Below, one piece after another: positions 770 through 18,559 of a DNA stretch of 20,000 nucleotides (the first letter of the stretch is position 1; the number at the start of each line of letters is the position of its first letter). Position numbers and translations under genes: made by a program. The stretch lies in sequence record SRR31156797_7944. The stretch is one strand, 5' to 3'. Below the pieces are notes generated by a model. It did no database searches, was not told the DNA's origin, and saw nothing but the letters and a program-made list of their open reading frames with translations.

Positions 770-780
770 TCCGTCTTCTC

Positions 781-2643: not shown

Positions 2644-2656
2644 ACAATCTCCTTTG

Positions 2657-3493: not shown

Positions 3494-3497
3494 GCTT

Positions 3498-4493
3498 TCA
3501 GCTCCCCTTCCCGGCCCTGTAGGCCCTGATGAAATCCCGCACCTCCGCAAGGGTCGGCATGGATTCGGAGCAGTCGGGGCTCTGCACCACGATGGCGGCG
3601 GCTCCGGCGCCCAGCTCCATCCCCTCGGCGACGCCTTTGCCGCTTAACAGGCCGTAGATCAGGCCCCCCGCATAGGAGTCTCCGGCCCCCATGGTCTTCA
3701 ACGGGGTCACAGGGAACACGGCGCCCTTGACGACGCTGCCGTCCCTGTTATAGGCGACGGAGCCCTCCCGGCCATGCTTGATCACCACAAGCTCCGCATT
3801 CCAGTCGAACCATCTCTTCGCCGTCAGCTCGTCGTCCCTGTTGGCGGGCATGGAGAACTTCTCCAGCATATCGAACTCCTCCCGGGTTCCGAGAATGACA
3901 TTGCTTTTCTCGGCTGCCAGGGAGAGATAGATGCCGCTCTCCTCCGCCGACTTCCAGGTATAGTCCCTGTAGTCGATATCGAGCAGCACCTTGGTGCCGT
4001 GCCTGAGAGCGTATTCCAAGGCCGCGAAGACCGCCTCTCTGGAAGGGCTCCGGGACAGAGCGGTTCCCGAAACGACCAGGAGCTTCGCCTTTCTGACATA
4101 CTCCTCGTCGATGTCCTTGATGCTCAGGTTCAGGTCGGCCACGTTGTCCCGGTGAAGGATATAGCTGCTGTCTCTGGGGGAACGGATCTCCGTAAAGGCC
4201 AGGCCGCTCATCCCGCCGTCCATATCGGCCTGCAGGTGACTGGAATCTATCCCCTTGCGGTCGAAGTAGCTGCGGATAAAGCGGCCGTGCTGATCATCCG
4301 AAACCCGCCCGATAAAACCGACCTTGAGATCATAGCGCGAGCAGGCCACGGCGATGTTCGCCGGAGACCCGCCCACCGTCTTCCTGAAGGTCATGTTCTC
4401 TTCCATGGGAACGTTCATGTCCACGGCATTCAGGTCTATCCCGGCCCTCCCGAGGGCGATGACATCGATGGTTTTGCCGTCAGCGAATTCCAT
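3498..4493 (-). CDS. iolC: 5-dehydro-2-deoxygluconokinase (PfkB family)
   Basis: DVIALGRAGIDLN, VGGSPANIAV, DDQHGRF, VSGTALSRSPSREAV, LDIDYR, KTMGAGDSY PfkB anion-hole motif; iol context. Confidence 0.93.
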   Translation of the reverse strand: MEFADGKTIDVIALGRAGIDLNAVDMNVPMEENMTFRKTVGGSPANIAVACSRYDLKVGFIGRVSDDQHGRFIRSYFDRKGIDSSHLQADMDGGMSGLAFTEIRSPRDSSYILHRDNVADLNLSIKDIDEEYVRKAKLLVVSGTALSRSPSREAVFAALEYALRHGTKVLLDIDYRDYTWKSAEESGIYLSLAAEKSNVILGTREEFDMLEKFSMPANRDDELTAKRWFDWNAELVVIKHGREGSVAYNRDGSVVKGAVFPVTPLKTMGAGDSYAGGLIYGLLSGKGVAEGMELGAGAAAIVVQSPDCSESMPTLAEVRDFIRAYRAGKGS

Positions 4494-4507
4494 ATCCCCT
4501 CCCCGTC

Positions 4508-5314
4508 CTATCTGTCGGGCCAGATCTTGGCGTCGGGCTCCTGGGCCCAGAGGTGCTGCTCCTCAAAGTCGGGCCCGAGGTAGGGATTCCCGTCCAGATG
4601 GCGGATCACCCACAGGAAGTACATGGCATAGCCCGGCGCGGCGACCTGGGGATGAACCAGATCGGGGGGAATGACCACCGTATCGTTCTGCTCGAGGCAG
4701 ACGCCCTGATCGCCCAGCCTCAGGAGACCGAAACCGTTCTCGGGAAGGAAGCGGTAGAAGTAGATCTCGGGCTGATTATGGGAGTGGGAGGGGAATCCCG
4801 CCCATTTCCCGGGATAGTGGACGTCCTCGCCGATCATAAAATTGGCATTCTCGTGGATGGACTTGTCCAGGATGGTCCGGACCTGTCTGGTCCCCGTTTC
4901 GTTCATGGTGCCCTTGCCGCGGACCTCGTTCCTCAGCTCGGCGCTGCCGAAGAGCTTTGAAGGAAAGGTTTTTTCGTTTGCCGTCTTGTGTACGGAAAAC
5001 TCCGTATCGTCCTTCAGAGCCCTGACGGCCAGCTTCGTACCGGGAGACAGGTGCATCGTATAGGGATCGTGGTCATACAGGTTGTCCCGTTTGATCACGA
5101 CGGTTTCGTCATCCCAGCTGAGCTCGGCCTCGCCCTGAAGAAGGAGAAAGATCCGTTCCAGGTCCTCATCGCTCTCAAACTCATCCCCCGAGGCCATGTT
5201 CAGAACCCCAAAGGTCATGAGCATCTCGGGATTGCTCTCTTCGGACACCACTTCGGTGTAGCCCGGCTTGAATCCCTCTTTGTTTCTGATCTTGTACTTT
5301 GCTTCCAAATCCAC
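4508..5314 (-). CDS. iolB: 5-deoxy-glucuronate isomerase (KduI/IolB family)
   Basis: GKWAGFPSHSHNQPEIYFYRF and HPQVAAPGYAMYFLW cupin motifs. Probable GTG start at 5314, with GAGGA 8 nt upstream overlapping the end of the preceding gene. Confidence 0.88.
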   Translation of the reverse strand: MDLEAKYKIRNKEGFKPGYTEVVSEESNPEMLMTFGVLNMASGDEFESDEDLERIFLLLQGEAELSWDDETVVIKRDNLYDHDPYTMHLSPGTKLAVRALKDDTEFSVHKTANEKTFPSKLFGSAELRNEVRGKGTMNETGTRQVRTILDKSIHENANFMIGEDVHYPGKWAGFPSHSHNQPEIYFYRFLPENGFGLLRLGDQGVCLEQNDTVVIPPDLVHPQVAAPGYAMYFLWVIRHLDGNPYLGPDFEEQHLWAQEPDAKIWPDR

Positions 5315-5318
5315 TGTA

Positions 5319-6002
5319 TTAATCCTCTGTTTTCTTCTCAATGACGCCCGGGTTCTCACGGAAACGCTTCAGCATCTCTTCCACATGCTCCACAAGGACC
5401 TTTTCTATCTTCATCGTCTTCACCGACGGCCGGTCGTCATCCCGCTTCCCGCCGGTGGTGTCATAGGCCTGGGCGATCCAGTCCACGCACATATCCGGAG
5501 GGATGATACTGGTATCCAGTATAAGGTCGAATTCGGTACTGTTGTTGTAATCGAATCGGAAATCCGACTCCACGAAGGAGCGCCTCACCCGATCATTTTC
5601 CTTTACCATCTTTTTCGCTTCCGGCTCGGACAGGTTCTTGTCCTCCATCAGCCGGTGGATACGGCATGCCTCGGGCGCCTTGATCCGGATATTGATGACG
5701 TCCGAATAGGTATCCAGCAGACCGAAACTGCCCCGTCCGGCGATGACCACGTTGCCATGATGGGCCACCGCCATAATGACCTCGGCCAGGAAGTTGATGG
5801 TCATCTCGCGATACACATCATAACGCTCCCACATGCCGGGCACTTTCTCATAGATATTGTCGAACTTGCTGAACCCGTACTCCTTCATGATCTTGGAGAG
5901 CTGATTCTTGTCCACATAGTCGTAATCAAGCTTTTCGGCAAGCTTCTTTCCCACATAGGTACCCATGCTGCCGAGCTTTCTGGATATTGTAATAACTGCC
6001 AT
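5319..6002 (-). CDS. cytidylate kinase-like family protein (Cytidylate_kin2 type), function unknown
   Basis: VITISRKLGSMGTYVGKKLAEKLDYDYVDK N-terminus, GNVVIAGRGS, IRIKAP..CRIHR, NDRVRRSF, FDLILDTS. RBS AGGGAG. Confidence 0.8.
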   Translation of the reverse strand: MAVITISRKLGSMGTYVGKKLAEKLDYDYVDKNQLSKIMKEYGFSKFDNIYEKVPGMWERYDVYREMTINFLAEVIMAVAHHGNVVIAGRGSFGLLDTYSDVINIRIKAPEACRIHRLMEDKNLSEPEAKKMVKENDRVRRSFVESDFRFDYNNSTEFDLILDTSIIPPDMCVDWIAQAYDTTGGKRDDDRPSVKTMKIEKVLVEHVEEMLKRFRENPGVIEKKTED

Positions 6003-6018
6003 TGAAGACTCCCTGGGC

Positions 6019-6079
6019 TTTCATCCGGGACCGGGCCCCGGGATGAGAGAACATATCCCCCGGCCCAGCGGCCGGGAGA
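6019..6079. other. two tandem GC-rich inverted repeats between the permease and kinase-like genes
   Basis: TTTCATCCGGG...CCCGGGATGAGA (about 6019-6048, imperfect) and CCCGGCC-cagc-GGCCGGG (6059-6076). No U-tract on the minus strand. Confidence 0.5.
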
Positions 6080-6094
6080 AAGATGCGATATACC

Positions 6095-7078
6095 TTATTT
6101 CTTTTTCTGTTTCCGGGCGTCGATCAGAACGGCGATCACGATGATGAATCCCTTCACGATCTGCTGCCAGTAGGCGTTGACGCCCAACAGGTCCATACCG
6201 TTGTTCAGAACGCCGATGATCAGAGCCCCAATGACGCAGAAGGGGATCGAACCGATACCGCCGGAAAGGGAGGTGCCGCCGATTACGGTGGAGGCGATGG
6301 CGTCCAGCTCATAGGACAGGCCGTAGGTGGGGTTACCCGCGGAGGTTCTGGCCGTCAGGATCACAGCGGCCACGGCAGTGAAGAAACCGGCCAGAGCGTA
6401 AACCTTGACCAGGGTCTTCTCCACATTGATACCGCATATCCTGGCGGCCTGCTCGTTGCCGCCGATGGCGAACACGTGGCGGCCGAATCTGGATTTGCTC
6501 AAGAGGATATGGGCGATGATCCCCATGATCAGGTAGATCCAGATGGGGATGGGGATGCCCGCGAAGCTGCCCGTACCGATAAAGGTGAAGCTGTCCTTCA
6601 GGTCGCCCACGGGGCGTCCCTGGGTCACCAGGGCCGCCGCTCCCCTGGCCACGGTCATCATCCCCAGGGTGGCTATGAAGGGAGGGATCTTTCCGAAGGC
6701 ATGGAGGGAACCGTTTATGGCGCCCATCAGAAGACCGAGGATCACAGCCGCGAGCAGACCGAGGGCTATGGGCGCCACGATGCTGAAGGACTGGTCGGGA
6801 TTCACCTTGTTCTGGGACATGGAAGCCACGACGACCGAGATCAGGGCGACCATGGAGCCGGACGACAGGTCGATACCGGTTGTGATGATGGCGAAGGTGA
6901 CGCCAAAGGATATGATACCGATGATGGACACCTGGCGGATAACGTTTGTGATATTCCGGACGGACCGGAAAGCCGGGGATACGACGGACAGTATCAGACA
7001 AAAGGCTACAAAGATGACGACGATACCGTATTTACTCATAAAGGCGCCGAAGCTGGGCCTTCCTAATGCTTTCTGCAT
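6095..7078 (-). CDS. sugar (probably inositol) ABC transporter permease, RbsC/MglC family
   Basis: GIDLSSGS, IPPFIATLGMMTVARG, FGRHVFAIGGNEQAARICGIN, YELDAIASTVIGGTSLSGG; multiple hydrophobic segments. Confidence 0.93.
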   Translation of the reverse strand: MQKALGRPSFGAFMSKYGIVVIFVAFCLILSVVSPAFRSVRNITNVIRQVSIIGIISFGVTFAIITTGIDLSSGSMVALISVVVASMSQNKVNPDQSFSIVAPIALGLLAAVILGLLMGAINGSLHAFGKIPPFIATLGMMTVARGAAALVTQGRPVGDLKDSFTFIGTGSFAGIPIPIWIYLIMGIIAHILLSKSRFGRHVFAIGGNEQAARICGINVEKTLVKVYALAGFFTAVAAVILTARTSAGNPTYGLSYELDAIASTVIGGTSLSGGIGSIPFCVIGALIIGVLNNGMDLLGVNAYWQQIVKGFIIVIAVLIDARKQKKK

Positions 7079-7097
7079 GGTTTCAAAACCTCCTTGA

Positions 7098-8603
7098 TTA
7101 AAGCGATTCGCCTGTGGCGAGGGCCAGGATCTTTTCCTGGGTTGCTTCGTCCCGGCTGAGTTCGCCGGAACACTTCCCTTCGTGCATGACCATGATCCTG
7201 TCGCTTATGGCGAGGATCTCGGGCATCTCAGACGACACCATGATGATGCTCTTGCCCATCTTGGCCAGCTCACCGATGAGACGGTGGATCTCCGACTTGG
7301 CTCCCACGTCGATCCCTCTCGTGGGCTCGTCGAGGATCAGGACCTCCGGGGTCGTCAAGAGCCAGCGGGAGATCAGAACCTTCTGCTGGTTCCCTCCCGA
7401 GAGGTTCTTGATCAGCTGCTCCAGGGTAGGCGTCTTGATGGAGATGGCCTCCCTCTGCTCCTGGCAGTTCTCCCTGATCTTCTTCCTGTCCAGCAGACCG
7501 TTTTTGAGGTAGGTCCCCACATCGGGCATGATGATATTGTCCTTGATGGACAGCTCGGGGAAGATCCCCGTCAGCTTTCTGTCTTCCGTCACAAAGGCGA
7601 TGCCCTGGTTGATGGCGTCGATGGGCTCATGGATCTCGACCTTCTCTCCGTCCATCCGGATCTCTCCCGATTCGGCCGGCTTGTATCCGAATATGGCCTC
7701 CATGACCTCGGTCCGCCCGGCGCCCATCAGTCCGGCCACGCCCAGAACCTCTCCCCTTCTCAGACTGAAGCTGACGTTCTGGAATTTCTTGCCGTTGCAG
7801 AGATCATTGACCTCCAGGACGGTCTCGCCGATGGCGGCCAGCTCTTTATGGAAGAACTCATCCATGGAACGGCCGACCATCATGCTGATCAGCCTGTCCT
7901 TATCGAAGTTTTCGATAAGATCGGAACCGATGTACTCGCCGTCCCGAAGCACCGAGACCTCATCGCAGATAGCGAAGATCTCATCCAGTTTGTGGGAGAT
8001 GTAGATGATGGCGATTTTCTTCTTCTCTTTGAGATCCCTGATAATGTCATAGAGCTTATCGATCTCTTTGTCTGTCAGTGCGGAGGTGGGCTCATCCATT
8101 ATGACCAGGTCCGCGTTATAGGATACAGCCGTGGCGATGGCTACGAGCTGTGCATTTGCAATACTGATATCAGACATCATGACGCTCGGGTCGATGTCTA
8201 TTCCCAGCTCATCAAAGAGCTCTTGGGTCTCTTCAACCATCTTTTTCTGATTGATAAGATTCAAGCCTTTGGTTTTAATTACTTCCTTTCCCAGAAAGAC
8301 ATTACTGGCAACCGTAAGATTGGGAACCGGACTGATTTCCTGGGGGATCATGCTGATTCCGCCGTTGATGGCATCGATGGGGCTTTTAACAGCATAAGGC
8401 TCGCCCTTGAATTTCACCTCACCTTCGTCAGGCTGATAGATGCCGTAAAGGATCTTCATCAGCGTGGACTTCCCCGCTCCGTTTTCACCCATGAGAGCAT
8501 GAACGGTCCCCTTCCTGATCGTCAGGTCTACGCCTTTCAATGCCCTTACGCCTGGAAAGGACTTGGATACCCCTTTTATCTCCAGGACATTTTCCGTACT
8601 CAT
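7098..8603 (-). CDS. sugar ABC transporter ATP-binding protein, RbsA/MglA family (two ABC domains)
   Basis: Walker A GENGAGKST, MDEPTSAL, YISHKLDE, LSGGNQQK, LDEPTRGIDVGAK. Confidence 0.95.
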   Translation of the reverse strand: MSTENVLEIKGVSKSFPGVRALKGVDLTIRKGTVHALMGENGAGKSTLMKILYGIYQPDEGEVKFKGEPYAVKSPIDAINGGISMIPQEISPVPNLTVASNVFLGKEVIKTKGLNLINQKKMVEETQELFDELGIDIDPSVMMSDISIANAQLVAIATAVSYNADLVIMDEPTSALTDKEIDKLYDIIRDLKEKKKIAIIYISHKLDEIFAICDEVSVLRDGEYIGSDLIENFDKDRLISMMVGRSMDEFFHKELAAIGETVLEVNDLCNGKKFQNVSFSLRRGEVLGVAGLMGAGRTEVMEAIFGYKPAESGEIRMDGEKVEIHEPIDAINQGIAFVTEDRKLTGIFPELSIKDNIIMPDVGTYLKNGLLDRKKIRENCQEQREAISIKTPTLEQLIKNLSGGNQQKVLISRWLLTTPEVLILDEPTRGIDVGAKSEIHRLIGELAKMGKSIIMVSSEMPEILAISDRIMVMHEGKCSGELSRDEATQEKILALATGESL

Positions 8604-8638
8604 ATAGACTCCCGCTTAAATAAAAGAACACTTTCCTT

Positions 8639-8666
8639 AAAATGGGGAGAGCCTGAACCCTCCCCA
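8639..8666 (-). terminator. stem-loop after the binding-protein gene (partial terminator or mRNA stabiliser)
   Basis: Minus strand TGGGGAGGGT-TCAG-GCTCTCCCCA followed by TTTT, about 20 nt after the SBP stop codon. Confidence 0.6.
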
Positions 8667-8685
8667 AAATCGATCTAAAAACTGA

Positions 8686-9627
8686 TTACTTGTACTCGCT
8701 CATATTCTCGGGAGTGACGGTTTCGAAGGGGATCCAGTCCCACTTGTCAACGCCGTTCCCCTTAACCAGGTCGTACGCGGCCTTGGCGCCGTTGTAACCC
8801 TGGGCATTCATGTTCTGGAAAACAGTCACGTCCAGCCCCTTTCCGAGGTACTCGAGGGCGTCGGGAGTGGCGTCTACTCCGCCGATAATGAGATCAGCGT
8901 CCGCGATATTGGCGCCCTGGGCGGCCAGAAGGGTTCCGATGGCCATCTCGTCGTTGTTACATACGATGGCGTCCAGATCGGCACCGCTCTGAATCCAGTT
9001 CTCGGCGACCTGCATTCCCTTGGCTCTGTCCCACTTGGCTTCCGCGTCCATAACCACTTCGATATTGTCGTACTTGGCGAAAACCTGCTTGTTTCCTTCG
9101 GTTCTCATACGGGCGGCCTCGTGTCCCAGGGGTCCCATGATGATTCCGACCTTTCCGCCTTCGGGCTGCAGGGCTTCCGCTACCCACTCGGCCTGCAGGA
9201 TTCCGGCCTGGATGGACTCGGAACCTGTGTACACATCAAAGTCGTTGTGGAACTCTTCGGCGGGCATTCTGTTGGCGATGACCAGCTTCACGCCGTCGTC
9301 CTTACACTTCTTGAAGACAGGCTTCAGAGCGGAGATGTCTACGGGAACGATAAGGATGGCGTCCACGCCCTTGACCAGAAGGGTCTCGACCTGATTCAGC
9401 TGAACGGCCGCATCGTCTTTGGCATCGGTCATGATAACCTCTACATCCTCATGCTCGGCATCGAAAGCGCGAACGCCGTCCTGCAGGTAGGTCTGCCCCT
9501 TGTCTGAGAAGCTGCTCATCGCCGCGCCGATCTTTACGCTGCCATCATTCTGCCCCTCTGCAAAAACAGATGCGGGTACGATAAGCATAACCAGTGCGAT
9601 CATAACCAATGCGAATCTTTTACTCAT
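8686..9627 (-). CDS. sugar ABC transporter substrate-binding protein (RbsB-like, probably inositol-binding)
   Basis: Signal peptide MSKRFALVMIALVMLIVPASVFA without a lipobox Cys; DAKDDAAVQLNQVE, AKWDRAKG, CNNDEMAIG, GGVDATPDA, TVFQN. RBS GGAGG. Confidence 0.92.
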   Translation of the reverse strand: MSKRFALVMIALVMLIVPASVFAEGQNDGSVKIGAAMSSFSDKGQTYLQDGVRAFDAEHEDVEVIMTDAKDDAAVQLNQVETLLVKGVDAILIVPVDISALKPVFKKCKDDGVKLVIANRMPAEEFHNDFDVYTGSESIQAGILQAEWVAEALQPEGGKVGIIMGPLGHEAARMRTEGNKQVFAKYDNIEVVMDAEAKWDRAKGMQVAENWIQSGADLDAIVCNNDEMAIGTLLAAQGANIADADLIIGGVDATPDALEYLGKGLDVTVFQNMNAQGYNGAKAAYDLVKGNGVDKWDWIPFETVTPENMSEYK

Positions 9628-9679
9628 AGTTTTCCTCCAATTTTGTTGTCATCTACGGCAGGTTTTCGCCGTAAACAAC

Positions 9680-9722
9680 CAAACGTTTGCTCTATTATTA
9701 AACGAAAAAAACAGGCTGTCAA
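9680..9722 (-). promoter_or_regulatory. sigma70-type promoter of the iol transport/catabolism operon with a LacI-type operator
   Basis: Minus strand TTGACA (9722-9717), 17 bp, AATAAT (9699-9694), followed by the perfect palindrome CAAACGTTTG (9680-9689) over the predicted +1. Confidence 0.75.
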
Positions 9723-9788: not shown

Positions 9789-9789
9789 C

Positions 9790-10689
9790 TCAGAGCTGGG
9801 AAATCAGAAAATCCCTACTGGCTTTGATGTCCTTCAGAGCTCCGCCCGCGTCCCTGGGATCCCGCTCCTGCTCCACCGTGACCCATCCCGAATACGCCAG
9901 TTCGTCAAGGGTTTTCAAGACCCCGCCGTAGTCGACACAACCCTTCCCGATGGAACACATCACCCCCTTCCCGCAGGCATCGAAGAATCCCAGGCTGTCG
10001 GCGATAGCCGCTCCGTAGACCTCCGGATTGATATCCTTGAAGTGCACGTAATCCAGCCTTTCCGCATATTTTCTGAGCGATTGCACGGGATCGTCACAGG
10101 CATAATAGAGGTGGCCCGTATCCAGGCAGAGCCCGGCGGCCTCTGGGGAAATATCGTGAACGACCCGCTCTATTTCATCATCAAATTCTATATAACCTCC
10201 CGCATGGGGATGAATTACAGGACGAACGCCAAATTCGACCGAGGCTATTTTCGAGATGATTTTTATATGCTCCATCATCCTTTCCCAATCCCCGGCTTCC
10301 AGACGCGGCGCCGATTCGGGGTGCCCGGCCGTGTTGTTCCTGTCCGCCTTGACCGCATCGATGACGACCAGGTAACAGGGCGCCCCCTTTTCAGCGCTGC
10401 GGGATACGAGGGAACAGATCTTTCTGGTCTTGTCCGCCAGCATGGTCCTGTCCGCCGAGGGGCTCAGGTCATCGTAGATCGTGCCGGCGATCAGCTGCAG
10501 ACGCTTTGCGTGGAGCAGCTCCTTCAGATGCTCCGGTTCGGTGGGGAGGTAGCCGTATGGTCCCAGTTCAATGGCCCGGAATCCGCTCTCCCCCGCCTCA
10601 TCCAGGACGGTCCTCCAGGACGGATTATCGGGATTTCCCGGATCTTCGATCCCCCAGGAACAGGGGGCGACGGCAAAGTTAAAATCCAT
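9790..10689 (-). CDS. iolE: IolE/MocC-like inosose dehydratase (xylose-isomerase-like TIM barrel)
   Basis: APCSWGIE, IELGPYGYLP, HPHAGGYIE, LCLDTGHLYY, VHFKDI, GKGCVDY, WVTVEQE. Only IolE-type gene in the window, with an iol operator upstream. Exact activity within the family is uncertain. Confidence 0.65.
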   Translation of the reverse strand: MDFNFAVAPCSWGIEDPGNPDNPSWRTVLDEAGESGFRAIELGPYGYLPTEPEHLKELLHAKRLQLIAGTIYDDLSPSADRTMLADKTRKICSLVSRSAEKGAPCYLVVIDAVKADRNNTAGHPESAPRLEAGDWERMMEHIKIISKIASVEFGVRPVIHPHAGGYIEFDDEIERVVHDISPEAAGLCLDTGHLYYACDDPVQSLRKYAERLDYVHFKDINPEVYGAAIADSLGFFDACGKGVMCSIGKGCVDYGGVLKTLDELAYSGWVTVEQERDPRDAGGALKDIKASRDFLISQL

Positions 10690-10709
10690 TATATCGCTCC
10701 TTTTTTACT

Positions 10710-10729
10710 CAAACGCTTGCTTTATTATG
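10710..10729 (-). promoter_or_regulatory. LacI-type operator and -10 element upstream of the IolE-like gene
   Basis: caaacgcttgctttattat is nearly identical to caaacgtttgctctattat at 9680-9698. Minus-strand -10 CATAAT at 10729-10724; no good -35. Confidence 0.65.
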
Positions 10730-10831: not shown

Positions 10832-11839
10832 ATGAAGGTGACCATCAAAGACATAGCCCATAAGCTGGATCTCAATTTCTCTTCCGTCTCCAGAGCCCTG
10901 AACAATAAGCCGGGAGTCAGCGAGGAAACCCGGCGGCTGGTGATAGAAACGGCCAGGAAGATGGGCTACCGCCCCAATGTCATAGCCCGGGGACTGGTAA
11001 AGAACGAAACGAAGACCCTGGGCATCCTGATGCCGGATATCGTCAACCCCCTTTTCGGAGAGATTACGACGGCCATAATAGAAACCGCCAACGAACAGGA
11101 TTACGATGTGTTCCTCTGTATCTCCAACTGGAGCAAGCTGAAGGAAACCGACAACATCAACGCCATCCAGCAGAAGCAGGTCGACGGCATCATCATAAAG
11201 TCCGTGAGCGACGACAACACCAAGCTTCTGGAACAGACGAACATCCCCGTCATCGGCTATGAAACCTGGAGCAGGAACCATAACTTCAGTTCCGTCAGCA
11301 CCGACAACGAAAGGGGGGGGTATATCGCCGCCCGGCACCTGATAGACTGCGGTTACGAAAAAACGGCCATCCTCCACGGGCCTCTCAACTCCACCGCCGG
11401 TCTCCACCGGCGAAACGGATTCCTTCGGGCTTACGATGAATGCTCGAAAGCCTTTGACGATTCGCTGCTCTATATAGGCGAATACAATATAAAAAGCGGC
11501 TATCAGATGGCCTGCAGGCTCTTTGAAGAACACAGCCATGTGGATTCCATCTTTGCGGGCAACGATGTCATCGCCCTGGGCGTCCTCCAGTGCCTGGAGG
11601 AGAGGGGGATCAAGGCGGGAAGAGAGTTCGGCCTGATCGGTTTTGACAACATCAGCTTCTCCCACCTTCCCCAGATCCAGCTCACCACGATCAAGCAGCC
11701 CAAGTACAGCATCGGCAAGATCATGACCAAGATGGTCCTGGACGAAATAAAGAGCCGCGGCAAAGGGGAGAAGGTCCCCCCCCAGCGCATCCTCCTTCAG
11801 CCCGAACTCATCGTCCGGGAAACAACAGCCAAAAGATAA
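10832..11839 (+). CDS. LacI-family transcriptional regulator, probable inositol regulon repressor
   Basis: MKVTIKDIAHKLDLNFSSVSRALNNKPGVSEETR HTH, hinge YRPNVIARGL, NDVIALG, GFDNI, LTTIKQP. Start set at ATG 10832. Confidence 0.93.
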   Translation: MKVTIKDIAHKLDLNFSSVSRALNNKPGVSEETRRLVIETARKMGYRPNVIARGLVKNETKTLGILMPDIVNPLFGEITTAIIETANEQDYDVFLCISNWSKLKETDNINAIQQKQVDGIIIKSVSDDNTKLLEQTNIPVIGYETWSRNHNFSSVSTDNERGGYIAARHLIDCGYEKTAILHGPLNSTAGLHRRNGFLRAYDECSKAFDDSLLYIGEYNIKSGYQMACRLFEEHSHVDSIFAGNDVIALGVLQCLEERGIKAGREFGLIGFDNISFSHLPQIQLTTIKQPKYSIGKIMTKMVLDEIKSRGKGEKVPPQRILLQPELIVRETTAKR

Positions 11840-11900: not shown

Positions 11901-12866
11901 TTAGAGATTCGCCTCTGCAACAGACGCCAAGTGGGGTGCGGTCAGTCCATTCTTATCTATGATAAAGGCATGATCGCCCAGAGGCTGGAATTTATCCCCC
12001 AGACTGACAATGATCTGTCTGGGTGTGTTCTCGCATCCGGCCTTGTACTCCGCGACGGCGGCGCCCAGGCCTCCGACGGAGCTGTGCTCCTCAACCGTCA
12101 GGATCAGACGGTTTTCCGCAAAGACCGAATCCAGGATATCCGTATCCAGGGGCTTGACCGTATGCATGTCGATCACCCTGGCGGAGATCCCTTTCCCATT
12201 GAGAAGATCCGCCGCTCCCACGGCCTCGGCCAGCATGGAACCGCTCGAGATAATGGCCACGTCCTTTCCGGGACGATACTCGACGGCCCTGCCGATCTGA
12301 AAATCGAAGTCTTCGGAATAGAGAACCGGATACCCCGGTCCGCCGGTCAGCCGGATATACACCGGCCCCTGATGCTCAGCCGCGGCGTACAGGGCCTTGT
12401 AGAGCTGCAGGGGATCGGAGGGGGCCATAACCGTGAAGTTGGGGATGGCCCGGGCCACCGCCATATCGTCCATGGCGTAATGGGTGTTTCCCAGAGGTCC
12501 GAAGCGTACCCCCGCTTCGATGCTGACCACCTTGGCGTTCAGATTCATATATCCCATATTGACCCTCATCTGCTCGGCGCAGCGCATGGGCACGATGGCG
12601 GCCAGGCCCACCGCAAAGGGCAGGACCCCTTCCGCCGCCAGGCCCGCCGAAAAGTTGATCAGGTTCTGTTCGGCGATTCCCACATCAAAGAATCTGTCGG
12701 GATAGCTGTCCCGGAAGGCCGTCAGACGGGCCGTGGGGGTCAGGTCTGCCGTTACGGTGCACATCTCGGGATAGTCTTCGGCCATCATAACCAGGGTGTC
12801 CCCCATAACCGTTCGATGTCCGGCCTTGGACCATTCCCGAAGTTTATCTAAAGGCAATTTGCTCAT
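11901..12866 (-). CDS. split transketolase, C-terminal (pyrimidine-binding) subunit
   Basis: TADL, YPDRFFDVGIAEQN, RCAEQMR, GNTHYAMDD, GPVYIRL, DMHTVKPLD, VEEHSSVGGLG. Start reset to ATG 12866 (MSKLPLD), RBS GAGGAG. Confidence 0.92.
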   Translation of the reverse strand: MSKLPLDKLREWSKAGHRTVMGDTLVMMAEDYPEMCTVTADLTPTARLTAFRDSYPDRFFDVGIAEQNLINFSAGLAAEGVLPFAVGLAAIVPMRCAEQMRVNMGYMNLNAKVVSIEAGVRFGPLGNTHYAMDDMAVARAIPNFTVMAPSDPLQLYKALYAAAEHQGPVYIRLTGGPGYPVLYSEDFDFQIGRAVEYRPGKDVAIISSGSMLAEAVGAADLLNGKGISARVIDMHTVKPLDTDILDSVFAENRLILTVEEHSSVGGLGAAVAEYKAGCENTPRQIIVSLGDKFQPLGDHAFIIDKNGLTAPHLASVAEANL

Positions 12867-12909
12867 GGTATATCTCCTCTCTCGCTCAGGGCTTTGCTCA
12901 AGCCGCTTC

Positions 12910-13743
12910 TTATTTTTCCAGATCCGAAACGGCCTGCTTGTAGTGTTCCTCGTCCATGGGCCTGGCATGCCAGCTGAGGCTGCCCTCCATAAAGGAAACG
13001 CCCTTGCCCTTGACGGTATCGGCAATGATGACGTGGGGCTTGCCGCTTTGGGAGTCTCTCATCTTCTCCAGGGCGGCGATCACGGTCTCCAGGTCATTCC
13101 CTTCTTCGATGACCATGACCTCCCAGCCCACGGCCTTCCAGAGGGAGACGAGGTCCACATCCATGATGTCGCTGGTCTTGCCGGCCAGCTGAACGCCGTT
13201 CCGGTCGACGATGGCCACAAGGTTGTCCAGTTTGTTCTTGGCGGCGTTCATGGCCCCTTCCCAGACGCTGCCCTCATTGCACTCGCCGTCTCCCATCAGG
13301 CAGTACACCCTGTGATCCTTCTTCTGAATCTTGGCGGCCTTGGCCATGCCGCAGGCCACGGGGAATCCGTTGCCCAGGCTTCCGGAGGAGACCTCTATCC
13401 CGTATTTCTGATTCCGGCTGGGGTGGCCCGACAGGAAGCTGTTGTCACCCTTGAAGCTGTACATCTGCTCCCGCGTGATGTAACCGGTCTCGACCAGGGC
13501 GGCATAGTAGCAGAGGCAGGCATGGCCCTTGCTCTGAACGAAGCGGTCCCTGCGGGGCATCACCGGATCCTTCGGATCATGATTCATGATCCTGAAGAAA
13601 AGGCCGGCCACGATCTCGATGCTGGACATGGCGGGTCCGAAATGCGCCCCCCTTCCGCCGGCGGCGTAGCCCATCTCAATAACATCGCGCCGCATCTCCA
13701 GCGCCTTCTGCTCGATCATGTCGATCGTATAGTTCTCCTGCAT
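12910..13743 (-). CDS. split transketolase, N-terminal (ThDP-binding) subunit
   Basis: GAHFGPAMS, RDRFVQSKGHA, LSGHP, SSGSLGNG, GDGECNEGSVWEG...DRN, TVKGKGVSFME...WH. Confidence 0.93.
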   Translation of the reverse strand: MQENYTIDMIEQKALEMRRDVIEMGYAAGGRGAHFGPAMSSIEIVAGLFFRIMNHDPKDPVMPRRDRFVQSKGHACLCYYAALVETGYITREQMYSFKGDNSFLSGHPSRNQKYGIEVSSGSLGNGFPVACGMAKAAKIQKKDHRVYCLMGDGECNEGSVWEGAMNAAKNKLDNLVAIVDRNGVQLAGKTSDIMDVDLVSLWKAVGWEVMVIEEGNDLETVIAALEKMRDSQSGKPHVIIADTVKGKGVSFMEGSLSWHARPMDEEHYKQAVSDLEK

Positions 13744-13750: not shown

Positions 13751-14638
13751 CTACTCCTTATTAATCGTATAAAGATGGCCGCTGTACTGCCCGCCGGGAA
13801 CGGCAGCCGCTTCGTACCTCGCCAGATCTATCATCTTCTGAACATCCAGGTTCAGCTCATAACCCATCTCTTCCAGCATGTAGGCCAGATCCTCGGTGGC
13901 CAGGTTTCCCGATGCTCCGGGAGCAAAGGGACAGCCCCCCAGCCCGCCCAGGGTGGACTGTACCTTACAGACGCCCTTCTCAATGGCCGCCAGGGTATTG
14001 ACCATGCCCATGCCCCTTGTGTCGTGGACATGAACCATCAGCTCCAGATCCGGATAGGCGTCGCCGACGGCATCTATGGTCTGCCTGACCTGGGACGGGT
14101 TGGCCATGCCCACCGTGTCGCAGAGATTGACGGTCCTGATCCCGCACTCCGCATAGGGCTTTAGAAAGGGGATCACATCGCGGGCGTGCTTCATGCCTTC
14201 AAAGGGACAGCCGAAGGCGGTGGCCAGATCCAGGCAGACAGCCATCCCGGGATAGGCCTCCCGTATCTTCCGCAGCTCCTCAAGGGACTCCTCATGGCTC
14301 CGCCTGATATTGGCCCGGTTATGGCTCAGGCTGAGGGAGACCACATAGGAGATCGACCCGATCCCCGCCTCCCGGGCGTTCTGAGCGCCCCTGAGATTGG
14401 GGACCAGGGCAAACAGATCGGCGTCCGGATAGCGCCTCACGCATGTCTCGGCCAGTTCCCGGGCGTCCCTCATCTGGGGGATCGCCTTGGGGCTGACGAA
14501 GGAGGTGATCTGCACATGCTCCATACCGGCATCCATCAGTCCGTCGATGATCCTCAGCTTCGTATCCAGGGGAATATACTCTTTCACATTCTGGAACCCG
14601 TCCCGGGGTCCGACCTCATAGATCTCTATCTTTTTCAT
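13751..14638 (-). CDS. hydroxymethylglutaryl-CoA lyase family protein (DRE-TIM metallolyase)
   Basis: EVGPRDGFQN, TSFVSPKAIPQMRDA, AFGCPFEG, HVHDTRGMG, GGLGGCPFAPGASGNLATED. Start overlaps the upstream stop (ATGA). Confidence 0.92.
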   Translation of the reverse strand: MKKIEIYEVGPRDGFQNVKEYIPLDTKLRIIDGLMDAGMEHVQITSFVSPKAIPQMRDARELAETCVRRYPDADLFALVPNLRGAQNAREAGIGSISYVVSLSLSHNRANIRRSHEESLEELRKIREAYPGMAVCLDLATAFGCPFEGMKHARDVIPFLKPYAECGIRTVNLCDTVGMANPSQVRQTIDAVGDAYPDLELMVHVHDTRGMGMVNTLAAIEKGVCKVQSTLGGLGGCPFAPGASGNLATEDLAYMLEEMGYELNLDVQKMIDLARYEAAAVPGGQYSGHLYTINKE

Positions 14639-16101
14639 GTGTCACTCTCCAGCATGGTCCCCTCTTCCCTGAGTCGTCTGTACCAGTCGAAGGCCGGGAC
14701 GGGAAGCTGGGGATGATGTCCTCCGCACTGTGACCTGGCCTTTTCCAGATAGCTCCGCAGCTGCTTTTTATAGCTTTCGGAGGCACAGTTTTCGATGATC
14801 GCCTCGGCGCGCTCCAGCTCATCCAGGCCCCTAAGATCGGCCACGCCGTTTTCGGTGACTGCCACATCGATATCGTGTTCCGAGATATCCACGTGGGAGA
14901 CCATGGGGACGATCCCCGAGATGGCCCCGCCCTTGGCGGAGGATGGGAGAAGCATGACCGAAAGCCCCGCGTTATGGGCGAAGCCCGCGCCTCCGCCAAT
15001 GCCGTTGACTACCCGGCTGCCCCCTATATGGCTGGCGTTCACATTCCCGTAGATGTCCATCTCGATACCCGAGTTCAGGGCGATCACGCCCAGACGGCCG
15101 ACGACCTCGGGGCTGTTGGTGATATCCCCATTGCGAATGACTATCTTCCTCCGAAGTTCCGCGCCGCTTTCAAGGATCTCCACCGCCCGGTCGCTCATCC
15201 CGATGCCGCCGGTGGATACGGCGGCCGCCCTGCCCGAGGCCAGAAGCTCCAGGACCGGCTCTGTCACTCCCCCGCAGAAGAACTGCAGATCTCCGAAACC
15301 GGAACGGGCGAAGCCGTCGGCCAGAGAGTCGGCCAGGGCCCCGAATCCGAGCTGCACGGGAGGAAGGGCGGCCCCTCTGCCGTACTCCTTCTCCAGAAAA
15401 CCGAAGAGCCGGGAGGCTATGCTGTCCGTAAGCTCCGTGCCCCTGGGCCGGGCCCCCATCCTTTCGGGGAGGGAGGTTTCCACGATACAGCGGATCTTCC
15501 CCGCATCAACGGGAACCGAGCCGCCCCCTATCCTCTGATCCGTTTTGACCAGGGGGATGGGCTGTGTATGGGGAGGGTCAGCGGGCACATGGATATCATG
15601 GAGTTCCCTCAGAAGCTCGGGCTGGGCGGAGTTGATCTCGACGATGACCTCTTTCGCCGCATCCAGCAGGTAGTGGACCATACCGACCGAGCTCGTAGGG
15701 ATCAGCCGTCCCTGGTCGTCGAAGCCCAGGGCCTCCACAACCGCCACATCTATCTCGCCGAAGCTTCCGTTCTTCAGAAGGCGGGGCATCTTGCACATCT
15801 GCTGCTCCACATAGCGCAGCTCCCCCCTGTTGGCCTGAGCCGACAGGGTTCTGCCGGCCACCATGGGAGCCCGCCGGGCCACGATCCCCTCCGTTCCCAG
15901 CAGCTCATCCAGCCAGGGGACATTCGCCCCTGTCAGCAGATTCAGAGAGAGGCTCTCGCCCGCCTGCTTCCGCTTAACCAGTTCTCCCGGAACGGCCTTG
16001 GGGTAGCCCGCCATGGCCCATCCGCTCATGGCGACGGTCATGCCGTCCCTGATAAGATAGGCAGCCTCGGAGGCGGAAACCTTCAGCTTATTCATATCCA
16101 T
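14635..16101 (-). CDS. acetyl-CoA hydrolase / succinate CoA-transferase family protein (Cat1/AarC/ScpC-like), catalytic Glu apparently replaced
   Basis: SGWAMAGYPKAVP, IDVAVVEA, IPTSSVG, VIVEIN, HDIH, SPEVVGRLGVIALN, EMDIYGNVNASH, NGIGG, IVPMVSHVD, VTENGVADLRGL, GGHHP. Start reset to ATG 16101 (16095 also possible), just after the ALDH stop. Confidence 0.88.
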   Translation of the reverse strand: MDMNKLKVSASEAAYLIRDGMTVAMSGWAMAGYPKAVPGELVKRKQAGESLSLNLLTGANVPWLDELLGTEGIVARRAPMVAGRTLSAQANRGELRYVEQQMCKMPRLLKNGSFGEIDVAVVEALGFDDQGRLIPTSSVGMVHYLLDAAKEVIVEINSAQPELLRELHDIHVPADPPHTQPIPLVKTDQRIGGGSVPVDAGKIRCIVETSLPERMGARPRGTELTDSIASRLFGFLEKEYGRGAALPPVQLGFGALADSLADGFARSGFGDLQFFCGGVTEPVLELLASGRAAAVSTGGIGMSDRAVEILESGAELRRKIVIRNGDITNSPEVVGRLGVIALNSGIEMDIYGNVNASHIGGSRVVNGIGGGAGFAHNAGLSVMLLPSSAKGGAISGIVPMVSHVDISEHDIDVAVTENGVADLRGLDELERAEAIIENCASESYKKQLRSYLEKARSQCGGHHPQLPVPAFDWYRRLREEGTMLESDT

Positions 16102-16118: not shown

Positions 16119-17531
16119 TCAGCCCTTGGGGGTGAAACCGGCGAAGAGCTCTTCGTCCGAGGGCTGGCGGCTGGGGATCTCGCGGATGACCCAGGTATTG
16201 TTCATATAGTGTTTCAGTTCGATATTCTCGGAGGCGATATTGCCGCCCCATGTTCCGCATCCCAGGGAGCTGGTAAAGGGCATACCGCTCGTCCAGCTTC
16301 CCGTGTTGGTAGCGCCCTGGGCCTGATTGACCACGACCCTGGTGGTATAGGTTCCCAGGGCGTACTTGTCGACGTTTCCGGGGGTTCCGGAGTAGATGCC
16401 GATGGAATGGCCGGCGCCGGAGTAGGCGTGGTTCTCGTTGGCGATGCGGATGACCTCATCGATGCCATCGCTCTTGTAAACGGTGGATACGAGGCTCATC
16501 TTCTCGCCGGCGAAGGGCGTGGCCTCCCCGGTCTTGTCCTCTTCCACCAGAAGGAAGCTGGTTCCCTCGGGGATCTTTATCCCGGCTATCCTCGCGATGT
16601 TCTCCACAGGAGAGGCGACGATGTCACGGTTGAGAACATGGTCAGCGGGCCAGTTGGGCCAGATCGCCTTCTGCACCCTTGCCTTCTCATCGGCATCCAG
16701 CATATGGGCGCCCACCTTCGCCAGTTCGGCCAGGGCGTCGCCGTAGACGCCCTTGTCTATGATGATGCTGTTATCGCAGGAACAGCCCGCGGCGGTGTCG
16801 AAGGTCTTGCTGGCCTTGATCTTGACGGCCGCGTCTGCCAGATCGGCGGTCTTGTCGATGTGGATCATCGAATTGCCCGCTCCCACGCCGTAGGCGGGGG
16901 TTCCGGAGCTGTAGGCGGCCTTGACCATGGGAGATCCTCCGGTGGCCATCACCAGATCGCACTGGGCCATGAGTTCGTTGGTCAGGGGGATGGAAGGCTC
17001 CTCAATGGGGATGAACAGATCCTCGGGGGCCCCGTACTTCCTCATAACGTCCCGGATCAGGTTGACCGTCTTCGCACAGGTGTTCTTGCCACGGGGATGG
17101 GGGGAATAGATGATGGCGTCCCGGGCCTTTACGGCGAAGATGGCCTGGATAAGGGGATGCATCTCGGACTGGGTGCTGGGCACCAGAGAGCCGATGACGC
17201 CGACGGGCTTCGATATGCGAACCAGCCCTCTCTCGGGTATCTCCTCGCAGATCCCCACGGTCTTCACGTCCTTCACATCAAAGAGTACGCCCCGGCACTT
17301 GGCGGCGACCTTTATAAACTTGGAGGGAACGTCTCCCAGACGGCATTCATCGTAGGAGAACTCCGCCAGTTCCTGTACCAGCTCGTCATTGGCGACGATC
17401 TCCCAGACAATGGCGTAGGCCAGCTCGTCCACCCTCTCCTGGCTGAAGCCCTCCGCTATCTTCTGAGCCCTGCGAGCCCTGCCCATCAATTCGGTAATAT
17501 ATGCTGCTGCCTTCTGCGGATCTTTCATCAT
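16119..17531 (-). CDS. CoA-acylating aldehyde dehydrogenase (AdhE-N/SucD/SauS-like)
   Basis: SQERVDEL, KPVGVIGSLVPST, SPHPRG, ATGGSPMVKAAYSSGTPAYGVGAGN, SKTFDTAAGCSCDN (catalytic Cys), FAGEKMS, GAGHS, LGCGTWGGN. Three tandem ATGs; GGAGG spacing favours 17531 or 17528. Confidence 0.92.
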   Translation of the reverse strand: MMKDPQKAAAYITELMGRARRAQKIAEGFSQERVDELAYAIVWEIVANDELVQELAEFSYDECRLGDVPSKFIKVAAKCRGVLFDVKDVKTVGICEEIPERGLVRISKPVGVIGSLVPSTQSEMHPLIQAIFAVKARDAIIYSPHPRGKNTCAKTVNLIRDVMRKYGAPEDLFIPIEEPSIPLTNELMAQCDLVMATGGSPMVKAAYSSGTPAYGVGAGNSMIHIDKTADLADAAVKIKASKTFDTAAGCSCDNSIIIDKGVYGDALAELAKVGAHMLDADEKARVQKAIWPNWPADHVLNRDIVASPVENIARIAGIKIPEGTSFLLVEEDKTGEATPFAGEKMSLVSTVYKSDGIDEVIRIANENHAYSGAGHSIGIYSGTPGNVDKYALGTYTTRVVVNQAQGATNTGSWTSGMPFTSSLGCGTWGGNIASENIELKHYMNNTWVIREIPSRQPSDEELFAGFTPKG

Positions 17532-17550
17532 CATGTCCTCCGGAACTTAT

Positions 17551-17568
17551 AAAGCATACGTTTGCTTT
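17551..17568. promoter_or_regulatory. near-perfect 18-bp palindrome, LacI-type operator matching the iol operators
   Basis: AAAGCATACGTTTGCTTT has one mismatched pair with its reverse complement and lies between the predicted promoter and the RBS of the ALDH gene. Confidence 0.7.
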
Positions 17569-17581: not shown

Positions 17582-17656
17582 ACTATACCCTTTCTATCGC
17601 AACTGTAAAGTTTCGTTTGGGTTTCGTTTGAAATTTATTTTATTCTGATCTAAGAT
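17582..17656. promoter_or_regulatory. back-to-back promoters of the ALDH operon and the DeoR gene
   Basis: Minus strand: TTTACA (17609-17604), 16 bp, TATAGT (17587-17582). Plus strand: TTGAAA (17628-17633), 17 bp, TAAGAT (17651-17656). Confidence 0.55.
17610..17630 (+). repeat. direct repeat GTTTCGTTTG x2 with 11-bp period; candidate DeoR site
   Basis: Exact 10-mers at 17610-17619 and 17621-17630, between the two -35 elements. Confidence 0.6.
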
Positions 17657-17696: not shown

Positions 17697-18461
17697 ATGT
17701 CCGACAGTCCTATTGAGATAACAAGGAAACTCCTGATTCAGAACGGCAAGGTGTATGTCAACGACCTGAGCCGCCGTTTCGGCGTCAGCAAGGTTTCGGC
17801 AAGGAAGTATCTGGCCAGACTGGAGGACGAAGGGATAGCCCAGAGGTTCTACGGAGGGGCGTCCCTGCTGAAGAAGGAGAAGCCCGATCAGGGGGACGGC
17901 GGTTTCTATTCGGATCCCCTCCTCCTGTCCCTGGCGCGGACGGCCCGCGGGCAGATCGAGGACGGGGACTCCCTCTTCATCGGCTCGGGAAGGAGCTGCT
18001 GCGTTCTGGCCAGGGAGCTGAAGGGCATCAAAAACCTGACGGTGGTCACAAACAACATAACGGCCCTGACCGATCTGAACAGAAACGCCACCCGGGTCTT
18101 CCTGATCGGCGGCGAGCTGACGACCACGGACAACAGCACCCTCTTCTCAAGCTGGGAGTCACACCAGCTTATGCCGGAGAACATCTTCGTCAACAAGGCC
18201 TTCACAAGCACATCCGGACTGGACCTGAAGGCGGGGATCACCGTGGACTCGATCATCAGCACCTATATCTTCAAGCACATCCCTGAGATGGCCCAGCAGT
18301 GGTATCTGATGGCCGATTCGGGCAAGTACGACAAGATTTCCATCTATTCGGTCGCAGATTTCGACAGCATTGACGTCCTGATCTCCGACCAGGTCCCTCA
18401 GAATTACAGGGAACACTGCCGCAAGCATGAGGTCAGGATCATCTCCCCCTCCCGGCTCTGA
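17697..18461 (+). CDS. DeoR/GlpR-family transcriptional regulator
   Basis: HTH VNDLSRRFGVSKVSARKYLARLEDEGIAQRFYGGA; sensor domain IEDGDSLFIGSGRS, TVVTNN, LIGGEL, MADSGKY. Start ATG 17697 with AAAGGA upstream. Confidence 0.92.
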   Translation: MSDSPIEITRKLLIQNGKVYVNDLSRRFGVSKVSARKYLARLEDEGIAQRFYGGASLLKKEKPDQGDGGFYSDPLLLSLARTARGQIEDGDSLFIGSGRSCCVLARELKGIKNLTVVTNNITALTDLNRNATRVFLIGGELTTTDNSTLFSSWESHQLMPENIFVNKAFTSTSGLDLKAGITVDSIISTYIFKHIPEMAQQWYLMADSGKYDKISIYSVADFDSIDVLISDQVPQNYREHCRKHEVRIISPSRL

Positions 18462-18468: not shown

Positions 18469-18548
18469 GGGCTCCCGTGCGGAGCCCTTCGGAGCGCAGA
18501 AAAGCCGGATGACGGGCCTCCGGAGGGAAACGCTCCCGGCGGAGGCCC
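18469..18548. terminator. two GC-rich hairpins between the convergent DeoR and SDR genes
   Basis: GGGCTCC-cgtgc-GGAGCCC (18469-18487) and GGGCCTCCG...CGGAGGCCC (18514-18548). Confidence 0.5.
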
Positions 18549-18559
18549 CAGCCGCTTCG

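Follow-up and report, generated by a model that had tools for sequence, protein, structure and literature searches.

The window analysed here is a single stretch of 20,000 nucleotides from sequence record SRR31156797_7944. It carries inositol (iol) genes, two regulator genes and an operon that begins with a CoA-acylating aldehyde dehydrogenase (ALDH) gene. The site under study, a short palindrome at 17551 to 17568, lies at the promoter of this operon. The following genes were called, with the family evidence for each in brackets:

2..9627, minus strand: iolG (partial), iolD, iolJ, iolC, iolB, a cytidylate-kinase-like gene, ABC permease, ABC ATPase and SBP (Pfam)
9790..10689, minus strand: iolE-like gene, a separate unit (Pfam; TIGR04379 IolE at 164 bits, under its cut-off of 290)
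10832..11839, plus strand: LacI-family regulator, termed LacI-1 (Pfam LacI and Peripla_BP)
11901..13743, minus strand: split transketolase, with TktN at 12910-13743 and TktC at 11901-12866 (Pfam)
13751..14638, minus strand: HMG-CoA-lyase-like protein (Pfam HMGL-like; NF004283 at 275 bits, cut-off 246)
14635..16101, minus strand: CoA-transferase of the acetyl-CoA hydrolase/transferase family (Pfam; ScpC-like at 466 bits, cut-off 500)
16119..17534, minus strand: CoA-acylating aldehyde dehydrogenase (ALDH), first gene of the operon (SauS-like NCBIfam model at 458 bits, cut-off 600)
17697..18461, plus strand: DeoR-family regulator, divergent from the ALDH operon (Pfam HTH_DeoR and DeoRC)

The genes from iolG to SBP form one unit, which would be read from a predicted promoter at about 9700. 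The LacI-1 gene is flanked by the iolE-like gene on one side and the ALDH-CoA-transferase-HMG-CoA-lyase-like-transketolase operon on the other. In the split transketolase, TktN has the Transketolase_N domain and TktC has Transket_pyr and Transketolase_C. The ALDH is SauS/SucD-like, with a weak Pfam Aldedh match, and its best solved relative is the acetylating succinate-semialdehyde dehydrogenase 8cei. The PDB matches of the HMG-CoA-lyase-like protein are HMG-CoA lyases. The CoA-transferase probably starts at the Met at residue 54 of its open reading frame, as its relatives align from about residue 54. A 410-aa ORF following the DeoR gene was assigned no family by Pfam or NCBIfam, and an ESM Atlas search with it returned only sub-threshold hypothetical clusters.

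The original prediction described three related sites in the window, each just downstream of a minus-strand -10-like hexamer, and all three were found as described. These sites, a fourth near-consensus match and the promoters called by a promoter scan are listed here:

3234..3245, no strand assigned: fourth near-consensus site, GCAAACGTTTTC, within the iolJ coding region
9679..9690, no strand assigned: predicted LacI-type operator of the SBP/ABC/iol operon, CCAAACGTTTGC
9694..9722, minus strand: predicted promoter of the SBP/ABC/iol operon, TTGACA-17-AATAAT
10709..10720, no strand assigned: predicted LacI-type operator of the iolE-like gene, TCAAACGCTTGC, located between this gene and the LacI gene
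17551..17568, no strand assigned: predicted LacI-type operator of the ALDH operon, AAAGCATACGTTTGCTTT, called from its sequence and conserved core
17582..17609, minus strand: predicted sigma-70-type promoter of the ALDH operon, TTTACA-16-TATAGT

The 12-mer core of the SBP box begins 4 nt downstream of the -10 hexamer. The promoter scan called no promoter for the iolE-like gene, where a CATAAT hexamer (10729..10724) was picked out by eye 3 nt from the box core. The ALDH box is an 18-mer that begins 14 nt downstream of the predicted -10 and ends 17 nt before the ATG at 17534. This places it at approximately +7 to +24 relative to a start site predicted from the hexamers alone, and the hexamers themselves are kept in relatives. 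Its span of 17-34 nt upstream of the ATG falls within, at the near edge of, the range in the part of PMC4052901 that we draw on.

When the window was searched with the 12-mer GCAAACGTTTGC and up to two mismatches, four matches were found against 0.55 expected, and none of 200 shuffled windows reached four. The match at 3234 may serve as an auxiliary operator or may simply reflect coding constraint; the same 12-mer is present inside iolJ of two related genomes, G001 (L002) and G006 (L202). The palindrome at 17551, in which 8/9 pairs match around a central CG, is less exceptional by itself. The window holds two 18-mers with 8/9 pairs where 2.9 are expected, and one with a central CG where 0.79 are expected. 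Since palindromy alone is at chance level, what speaks for an operator is how similar the sites are to one another, where they are placed and that they are conserved in orthologous promoters.

The same chance-level frequency could mean that the palindrome has no role in DNA binding, being either fortuitous or a small hairpin in the 5' untranslated RNA. The site does lie in the predicted 5' leader, where a 6-bp hairpin of -6.7 kcal/mol is possible. However, this hairpin is no better than those of shuffled sequence (z = -0.51; 49/200 shuffles fold as well), and the window has no Rfam match. What is conserved at the site is the sequence itself, which is of the same type as the iol boxes and shows no compensatory changes, and the box is lost or changes type along with the regulator, as described below. 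We therefore consider a chance palindrome or RNA hairpin extremely improbable.

According to the part of PMC4052901 used here, operators of the LacI family are palindromes of even length (16-22 nt) centred on a CG, and a single motif serves both PurR and RbsR. The 18-mer at 17551-17568 has this form, and like PurR/RbsR/CcpA-type operators it has AAAC/GTTT half-sites and the core GCAAACGTTTGC. LacI-1 resembles the regulators of this type as well, since it combines an N-terminal LacI HTH with a periplasmic-binding-protein fold, and its best family and structure matches are RbsR, PurR, CytR and CcpA. The E. coli PurR box has the exact core GCAAACGTTTGC. LacI-1 falls far under all equivalog cut-offs and so is none of these named regulators, and its predicted regulon consists of inositol genes and the ALDH operon. 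The lacO1 operator lies in the early transcribed region, and the position of the ALDH box in the predicted transcript is similar, so that a bound repressor would be expected to hinder initiation or promoter escape. In contrast to lacO1, the ALDH box has no established auxiliary operator pair for looping, the 3234 site being 14 kb away and in another unit.

LacI-family control of inositol genes has precedents. Table 1 of PMC4052901 (Ravcheev et al. 2014) lists seven LacI groups, not orthologous to one another, with a predicted role in regulating inositol use. Experimentally, IolQ of B. subtilis was shown to be a LacI-type repressor of an inositol dehydrogenase gene, protecting +4 to +30 of iolX, with the consensus AGAAARCGCTTKCK (PMC5504672, as far as that paper is drawn on here). 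As with IolQ and the 'IolR' groups in the sections of these papers that we used, the LacI-family gene of the window is beside inositol genes and the boxes are at the start of the transcribed region. The LacI-1 boxes, being GCAAACGTTTGC, differ from the IolQ consensus given in that source. Outside its supplementary regulon tables, the inositol regulons of PMC4052901 that we consulted contain no ALDH/CoA-transferase/HMG-CoA-lyase-like/transketolase operon.

The original prediction named phylogenetic footprinting of orthologous promoters as one check on the shared operator. A search with LacI-1 found five syntenic loci in marine spirochaete assemblies (L001-L005), with 65-79% identity, and a search of the order added a sixth (L096). 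Together with the window, these make up the footprinting set of seven genomes with a syntenic LacI orthologue. At the ALDH promoter, 7/7 of these genomes keep the box, in the same position between the -10 and the ribosome-binding site. It reads GCATACGTTTGC in the window, L001, L002 and L096, and as the mirror form GCAAACGTATGY in L003-L005, while the sequence flanking it has diverged to the point of being unalignable among the seven. The iolE-like promoter carries nCAAACGTTTGC in all seven genomes. At the SBP promoter the box is present in all six genomes where that promoter was visible; orthologous SBP-promoter sites reading nCAAACGTTTGC were found in L002, L003, L005, L096 and L107. The ALDH box always has one deviation, GCATAC, which is absent from the iol boxes. 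In a wider alignment, the core of the ALDH box is conserved in 7/9 orthologous promoters. Footprinting therefore bore out the prediction at all three promoters. One exception was found: a metagenomic lineage (L116/L117/L125) has a LacI-1 orthologue with 65-72% identity, and its ALDH promoter has the DeoR box only. The iolE and SBP boxes are present in L117 and L125 even though the ALDH promoter lacks the LacI box, so membership of the ALDH operon in the regulon is not universal.

Judged by sequence, the 17551 palindrome belongs with the two iol boxes as a LacI-family operator of one specificity class. The kind of site is ordinary, a textbook LacI-type operator, and its interest is as a functional lead to an uncharacterised operon.

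Such a motif might also belong to a global, cre-like network, which the original prediction gave as grounds for giving up the link to inositol. To estimate its distribution, six related genomes were scanned with up to one mismatch, a setting at which a very degenerate global motif would be under-counted. The scan found 35 near-consensus sites against 13 for the reversed control, or 4-7 per genome. All were annotated, and 27 of the 35 are at inositol clusters or at the ALDH operon: at the ALDH operon itself, at SBP, iolE or iolB promoters, inside iolJ, or at second iol-like clusters with their own LacI gene. The remaining eight include three at LacI/alpha-amylase loci (GCAAACGTGTGC), one beside a glycogen phosphorylase gene, one before a LacI gene of unassigned target, one between two ABC transporter genes and two inside ORFs.

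These counts bear on the possibility that a global catabolite regulator like CcpA acts at the boxes, in which case they would serve carbon catabolite control of many operons and would not be specific to inositol. CcpA is the best solved relative of the LacI protein (188 bits), and the motif resembles the general LacI/cre core in the part of the IolQ paper cited here (PMC5504672). Against this, LacI-1 scored 190 bits with the ccpA NCBIfam model TIGR01481, far under the cut-off of 442, and its gene is always embedded in the iol/ALDH locus. The sites are also few in each of the six genomes and, with 27/35 at inositol or ALDH loci, are not spread over many diverse operons. A CcpA-like network is thus very unlikely. 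The motif is better described, from its distribution, as that of a small local regulon plus some near-cognate boxes of other LacI proteins, since most of its sites are at inositol or ALDH loci. The genome-wide scan and the footprinting both favour the link to the iol regulon that had been proposed for the ALDH operon.

The protein most likely to bind the 17551 box is the LacI protein encoded at 10832-11839, as judged by gene neighbourhood and co-conservation. The LacI-1 gene adjoins the operon in 7/7 box-bearing genomes, so that a nearby cognate LacI gene and the box are conserved together, with the exception of the L116/L117/L125 lineage. G001, the closest large assembly, has the ALDH box, and its next-best LacI paralogue is only 34% identical to LacI-1.

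Another possible explanation is that the box is indeed a LacI-family operator, bound mainly by a paralogue instead of the protein at 10832, and that the operon answers a different sugar signal. Possible binders would be a duplicate of the LacI-2 type, the LacI (25% identical) that regulates a second iol-like cluster, and a maltodextrin-type LacI. Three genomes (G039, G040 and G041) have a second paralogue that is 60-67% identical to LacI-1, with an identical recognition helix, NFSSVSRALNNKPGVS; its gene is divergent from iolB-iolC and is accompanied by two boxes. The binder is therefore ambiguous in those genomes. G001 also has a 25%-identical LacI in a second iol-like cluster, which uses TGCAAACGTTTGTA boxes, and the LacI/alpha-amylase loci use GCAAACGTGTGC. 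The conserved GCATAC deviation, which sets the ALDH box apart from the iol boxes, would also suit a different binder. These points are countered by G001, whose ALDH box coexists with so distant a next-best paralogue, by the physical adjacency of the LacI-1 gene to the operon in every box-bearing genome, and by the box type found in G030 (see below). Taken together, we regard these alternative binders as unlikely. Cross-talk with other LacI regulons is possible, as their boxes are near-identical, e.g., TGCAAACGTGTGCA at LacI/alpha-amylase loci.

Two genomes that have the ALDH operon and lack LacI-1 were informative. G026 has the DeoR-ALDH operon, no LacI-1 orthologue (the best match is 35% identical) and no box at the ALDH promoter. 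No LacI-1 orthologue was found in G030 either. The iol-linked LacI of G030 belongs to a different group, is 34% identical and has the recognition helix YATVSR in place of FSSVSR. This genome contains five GTAAACGTTTAC-type sites: two beside its LacI gene, one inside the iol operon, one at an unannotated locus and one at the ALDH promoter. The last of these, GTAAACGTTTAA, is at the aligned position of the promoter and is of the GTAAACGTTT type, that of the genome's own iol LacI. The loss of the box in G026 and its change of type alongside the regulator in G030 indicate that the ALDH box tracks the inositol LacI. On these comparisons, the strongest argument for a regulatory link is that the ALDH promoter box goes with the particular LacI by which the inositol genes are governed. 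The operon may have been recruited at least two times independently into non-orthologous LacI inositol regulons, one with GCAAAC-type and one with GTAAAC-type boxes.

The original prediction also held that the ALDH operon is under additional DeoR control. A second conserved element was found between the ALDH and DeoR genes:

17597..17631, no strand assigned: predicted DeoR-type box, TCGCAACTGTAAAGTTTCGTTTGGGTTTCGTTTGA, a conserved block with three GTTTCG/CGAAAC units

This box overlaps the -35 hexamers of both the ALDH promoter and the predicted DeoR promoter, and its block TCGnAACTGTAAAGTTTCGnTTnnGTTTCGnTT is invariant in 9/9 aligned promoters. It occurs once in the window, once per genome in 5/5 genomes and not at all in controls, always at the ALDH/DeoR intergenic region and never at iol promoters. 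The DeoR gene divergently adjoins ALDH in L001-L005, L096, L097 and L099. The box invariance and its single occurrence per genome support the predicted DeoR control, and the pattern fits a dedicated local DeoR repressor that would also regulate its own gene. The best NCBIfam match of the DeoR protein is AgaR, at 114 bits with a cut-off of 260. AgaR sites contain TTTCRTTT repeats, and IolR of B. subtilis is a DeoR-family repressor that is released by a phosphorylated iol intermediate. Like IolR/AgaR-type repressors, the DeoR protein of the window has HTH_DeoR and DeoRC domains, is divergent from its target and has a short repeated box overlapping the promoter. It differs from B. subtilis IolR and AgaR-type repressors in that its box is at the ALDH/DeoR intergenic region and not at iol promoters.

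The best-supported reading is that the 17551 box places the ALDH operon in a shared inositol LacI regulon, with DeoR co-control, and from the comparative sequence evidence we give this a probability of roughly 0.7. The operon shares its operator type with the iol promoters and is also linked or fused to iol genes. The analysis shows the sites themselves, where they lie, that they are conserved and that genome-wide they are restricted to inositol loci, and it shows that the operon is linked to iol genes in gene clusters. We infer the identity of the binding protein, repression upon binding and the nature of the inducers. In the proposed mechanism, a LacI dimer would, without inducer, sit on the early transcribed region (approximately +7 to +24, like lacO1) and block transcription from TTTACA-16-TATAGT. 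The SBP and iolE-like promoters would be repressed from LacI boxes that begin 3-4 nt after the -10. The divergent DeoR protein would act as a second, dedicated repressor by occupying the triple GTTTCG-repeat box over both -35 hexamers. Since LacI and DeoR would both repress the one operon, its full expression would need two signals.

Next, the relation of the operon to inositol catabolism was considered. Metagenome contigs contained about 45 copies of the operon (ALDH with at least 57% identity), and in some of these it is physically joined to inositol genes. It is fused to iol genes in L118 (ABC then ALDH) and L180 (iolC-iolB then ALDH), and it is also joined to inositol genes in L123 and L189. 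In L194 the order is iolE-SBP-ABC then ALDH, with the GCATACGTTTGC box kept and DeoR absent. More distant ALDH homologues in metagenomes, with 47-50% identity at about 35 loci, were set aside because they are of another subfamily and the rest of the operon is missing. All matches to the locus in sequencing runs were contigs; those of one metatranscriptome contributed five short pieces, of which four are similar by at least 95%, and which fall on TktC, the TktN/HMGL junction and DeoR; as contigs, they have no bearing on transcription, start site or regulation, and the uncovered parts carry no meaning.

Among 38 genomes of the order, the operon is present in seven and iolD in 21, and all seven operon-positive genomes have iolD. 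In 400 further genomes sampled from the phylum, a search at E ≤ 1e-70 gave no match to the HMGL-like protein. A canonical IolA (TIGR01722 over its cut-off) was found in none of five related genomes, and the ALDH of the window, being SauS/SucD-like, is not one either, which raises the question of whether the operon replaces it. An IolA-like gene lies next to iolD in G037 and G038, which lack the operon. Six iolD-positive genomes (G007, G027, G029, G031, G032 and G036) have neither the operon nor an IolA-like gene, and for this reason the complementarity of operon and IolA is only suggestive and the phyletic pattern does not give clean support for replacement.

The closest relatives of the ALDH are acylating sulfoacetaldehyde and acylating succinate-semialdehyde dehydrogenases. 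Those of the CoA-transferase are succinyl-CoA:acetate transferases, and those of the lyase are true HMG-CoA lyases. These matches point to a substrate that is an aldehyde with an anionic group, which by homology could be malonate semialdehyde or a C4 carboxy-aldehyde. To the extent that enzyme families and gene context can tell, the operon most likely encodes a CoA-dependent branch, either terminal or lateral, of inositol catabolism in anaerobes in which no canonical IolA was found. That this is an undescribed CoA-dependent branch, in general form, is a tentative proposal to which we give clearly less than even odds; such a branch may replace the missing IolA or bypass IolC/IolJ, and it may also be gated by a dedicated DeoR sensor. 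In the literature searched on inositol breakdown and on the operon's enzymes, of which some papers were covered in part, no description of this operon was found.

Other anaerobes handle the end of the pathway in various ways. In Anaerostipes, the last 3-oxopropionate step is carried out by a 3-oxoacid CoA-transferase (PMC8355322, in the part used here), and in Dysosmobacter the sections of PMC13311982 that we draw on assign the 3-oxopropionate step to an oxoacid dehydrogenase complex. A term count of the main text of PMC13311982 found neither 'transketolase' nor 'lyase'. In having both a split transketolase and a CoA-acylating dehydrogenase for an anionic aldehyde, the operon recalls sulfoquinovose transketolase pathways (PMC11659671, PMC12890257; parts of each). 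Unlike in the sulfo-transketolase pathway, the ALDH is under the SauS cut-off, and no sulfosugar genes were seen beside the operon.

A scheme that parallels the sulfo-transketolase pathway is speculation, although it is chemically consistent, and it is far less likely than a new branch in general. In this scheme, the transketolase would take a C2 ketol from unphosphorylated 2-deoxy-5-keto-gluconate, whose C4/C3 stereochemistry, counted from the keto end, matches that of fructose. The SucD/SauS-like dehydrogenase would then convert the resulting carboxy-aldehyde into a C4-dicarboxylyl-CoA, and the Cat1/ScpC-like transferase together with the HMG-CoA-lyase-like enzyme would yield acetyl-CoA.

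The operator serves as a functional label: through it, a conserved, uncharacterised five-gene operon of marine anaerobic spirochaetes can be assigned to their inositol regulon. The fate of the last inositol intermediates in anaerobes is still being established one organism at a time, and the locus offers a candidate set of enzymes and two candidate sensors that are directly testable. It also provides an example from nature of a single operon whose box type matches the LacI in control of the inositol genes in each genome.

LacI-type boxes at this operon extend beyond the relatives described above. A different palindrome, TTGGAACGTTCCAA, was found at eleven metagenome loci (ten distinct), being perfect in ten and having one mismatch in L129, and it is placed 120-159 nt upstream of the ALDH gene. 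In the one such locus that was annotated, no iol genes were seen near the operon. These loci suggest that the operon is often under LacI-type control, and not always in an inositol context. In L118, where the operon follows the transporter genes, one gene lies between the ABC permease and ALDH.

The putative LacI-type operator in front of the ALDH operon (the ALDH box, window positions 17554-17565) and its orthologous sites each contain exactly one departure from a perfect palindrome. One half of the box reads GCATAC in the window and in the related loci L001, L002, L096, and L194. The deviation sits on the opposite half of the box in L003-L005, and both L003 and L005 additionally have a T for C at the end. 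No GCATAC-type deviation is present in the boxes at the iol promoters. The single deviation in the ALDH box may serve to tune its affinity.

The iol-type box is replaced by a 14-bp palindrome, TTGGAACGTTCCAA, in a GC-richer metagenomic lineage carrying the same operon (L128, L129, L132, L136, L138, L140, L142, L144, L148, L152, and L153). This palindrome is found 120-159 nt upstream of ALDH and is perfect in ten of these loci, with one mismatch in L129. At a further locus, L118, a perfect GCAAACGTTTGC box (9097-9108) comes immediately after TktC of the ALDH operon, and a second, divergent split transketolase pair (40% and 35% identical) follows it.

A near-consensus box, GCAAACGTTTTC, was also seen inside the coding region of iolJ (window 3234-3245). 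The same 12-mer occurs within iolJ of two related spirochaete genomes, G001 and G006, and in two others, G019 and G041, it is intergenic, upstream of iolB. The copy inside iolJ may act as an auxiliary operator, or it may have arisen by coincidence in the coding sequence.

Three further features of the window were considered, as listed here.

Further features of the window
5319-6002, cytidylate-kinase-like gene (PF13189), within the iol operon, with iolB on one side and an ABC permease gene on the other
within 10794-10834, predicted LacI promoter, TTTACA-17-GAGAAT, ending 9 nt short of ATG 10832
18509-19741, ORF of 410 aa, downstream of DeoR

The short distance from the end of the predicted promoter to the start codon suggests that the LacI mRNA is leaderless or has a very short leader. 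Another ATG in frame with LacI, at 10814, is present in the window and in L002 and missing in L001. The cytidylate-kinase-like gene occupies the same place in L002, L005, and L096, at 82-96% identity, and in G019 a PF13189 gene adjoins iolB. The cytidylate-kinase-like gene is not known to have a role in inositol catabolism. The 410-aa ORF belongs to no family in Pfam or NCBIfam, gave no match by tblastn against L001-L005, and had only sub-threshold Atlas matches, with low recognition. The opposite strand holds ORFs of 249 and 131 aa. The 410-aa ORF may not be a real gene.

A variant of the lyase-transketolase module was found in L100, from genome G012 (6516-13629). It is headed by a sigma-54 activator (PrpR_N), after which come a family III CoA-transferase, an HMGL-like gene with 50% identity, the TktN and TktC genes, and a D-2-hydroxyacid dehydrogenase. 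Genes for GFO/IDH, AP_endonuc_2, and a four-carbon acid-sugar kinase adjoin the module. The conserved core would seem to be the lyase and the transketolase.

In L097 (G026, 417-6045), the DeoR-ALDH operon is adjoined by another operon, which has a GTAAACGTTTCC box upstream and comprises creatininase-like, AP_endonuc_2, Zn-ADH, GFO/IDH, and UxaE genes. This neighbouring operon is similar to the Thermotoga-type inositol route. In L087 (G001, 744-10600), a second iol-like cluster consists of SBP, ABC, iolG, LacI, iolB, iolD, an iolE-like gene, and iolG. The cluster's own LacI shows 25% identity. Upstream of the SBP gene are two TGCAAACGTTTGTA boxes, spaced 200 bp apart.
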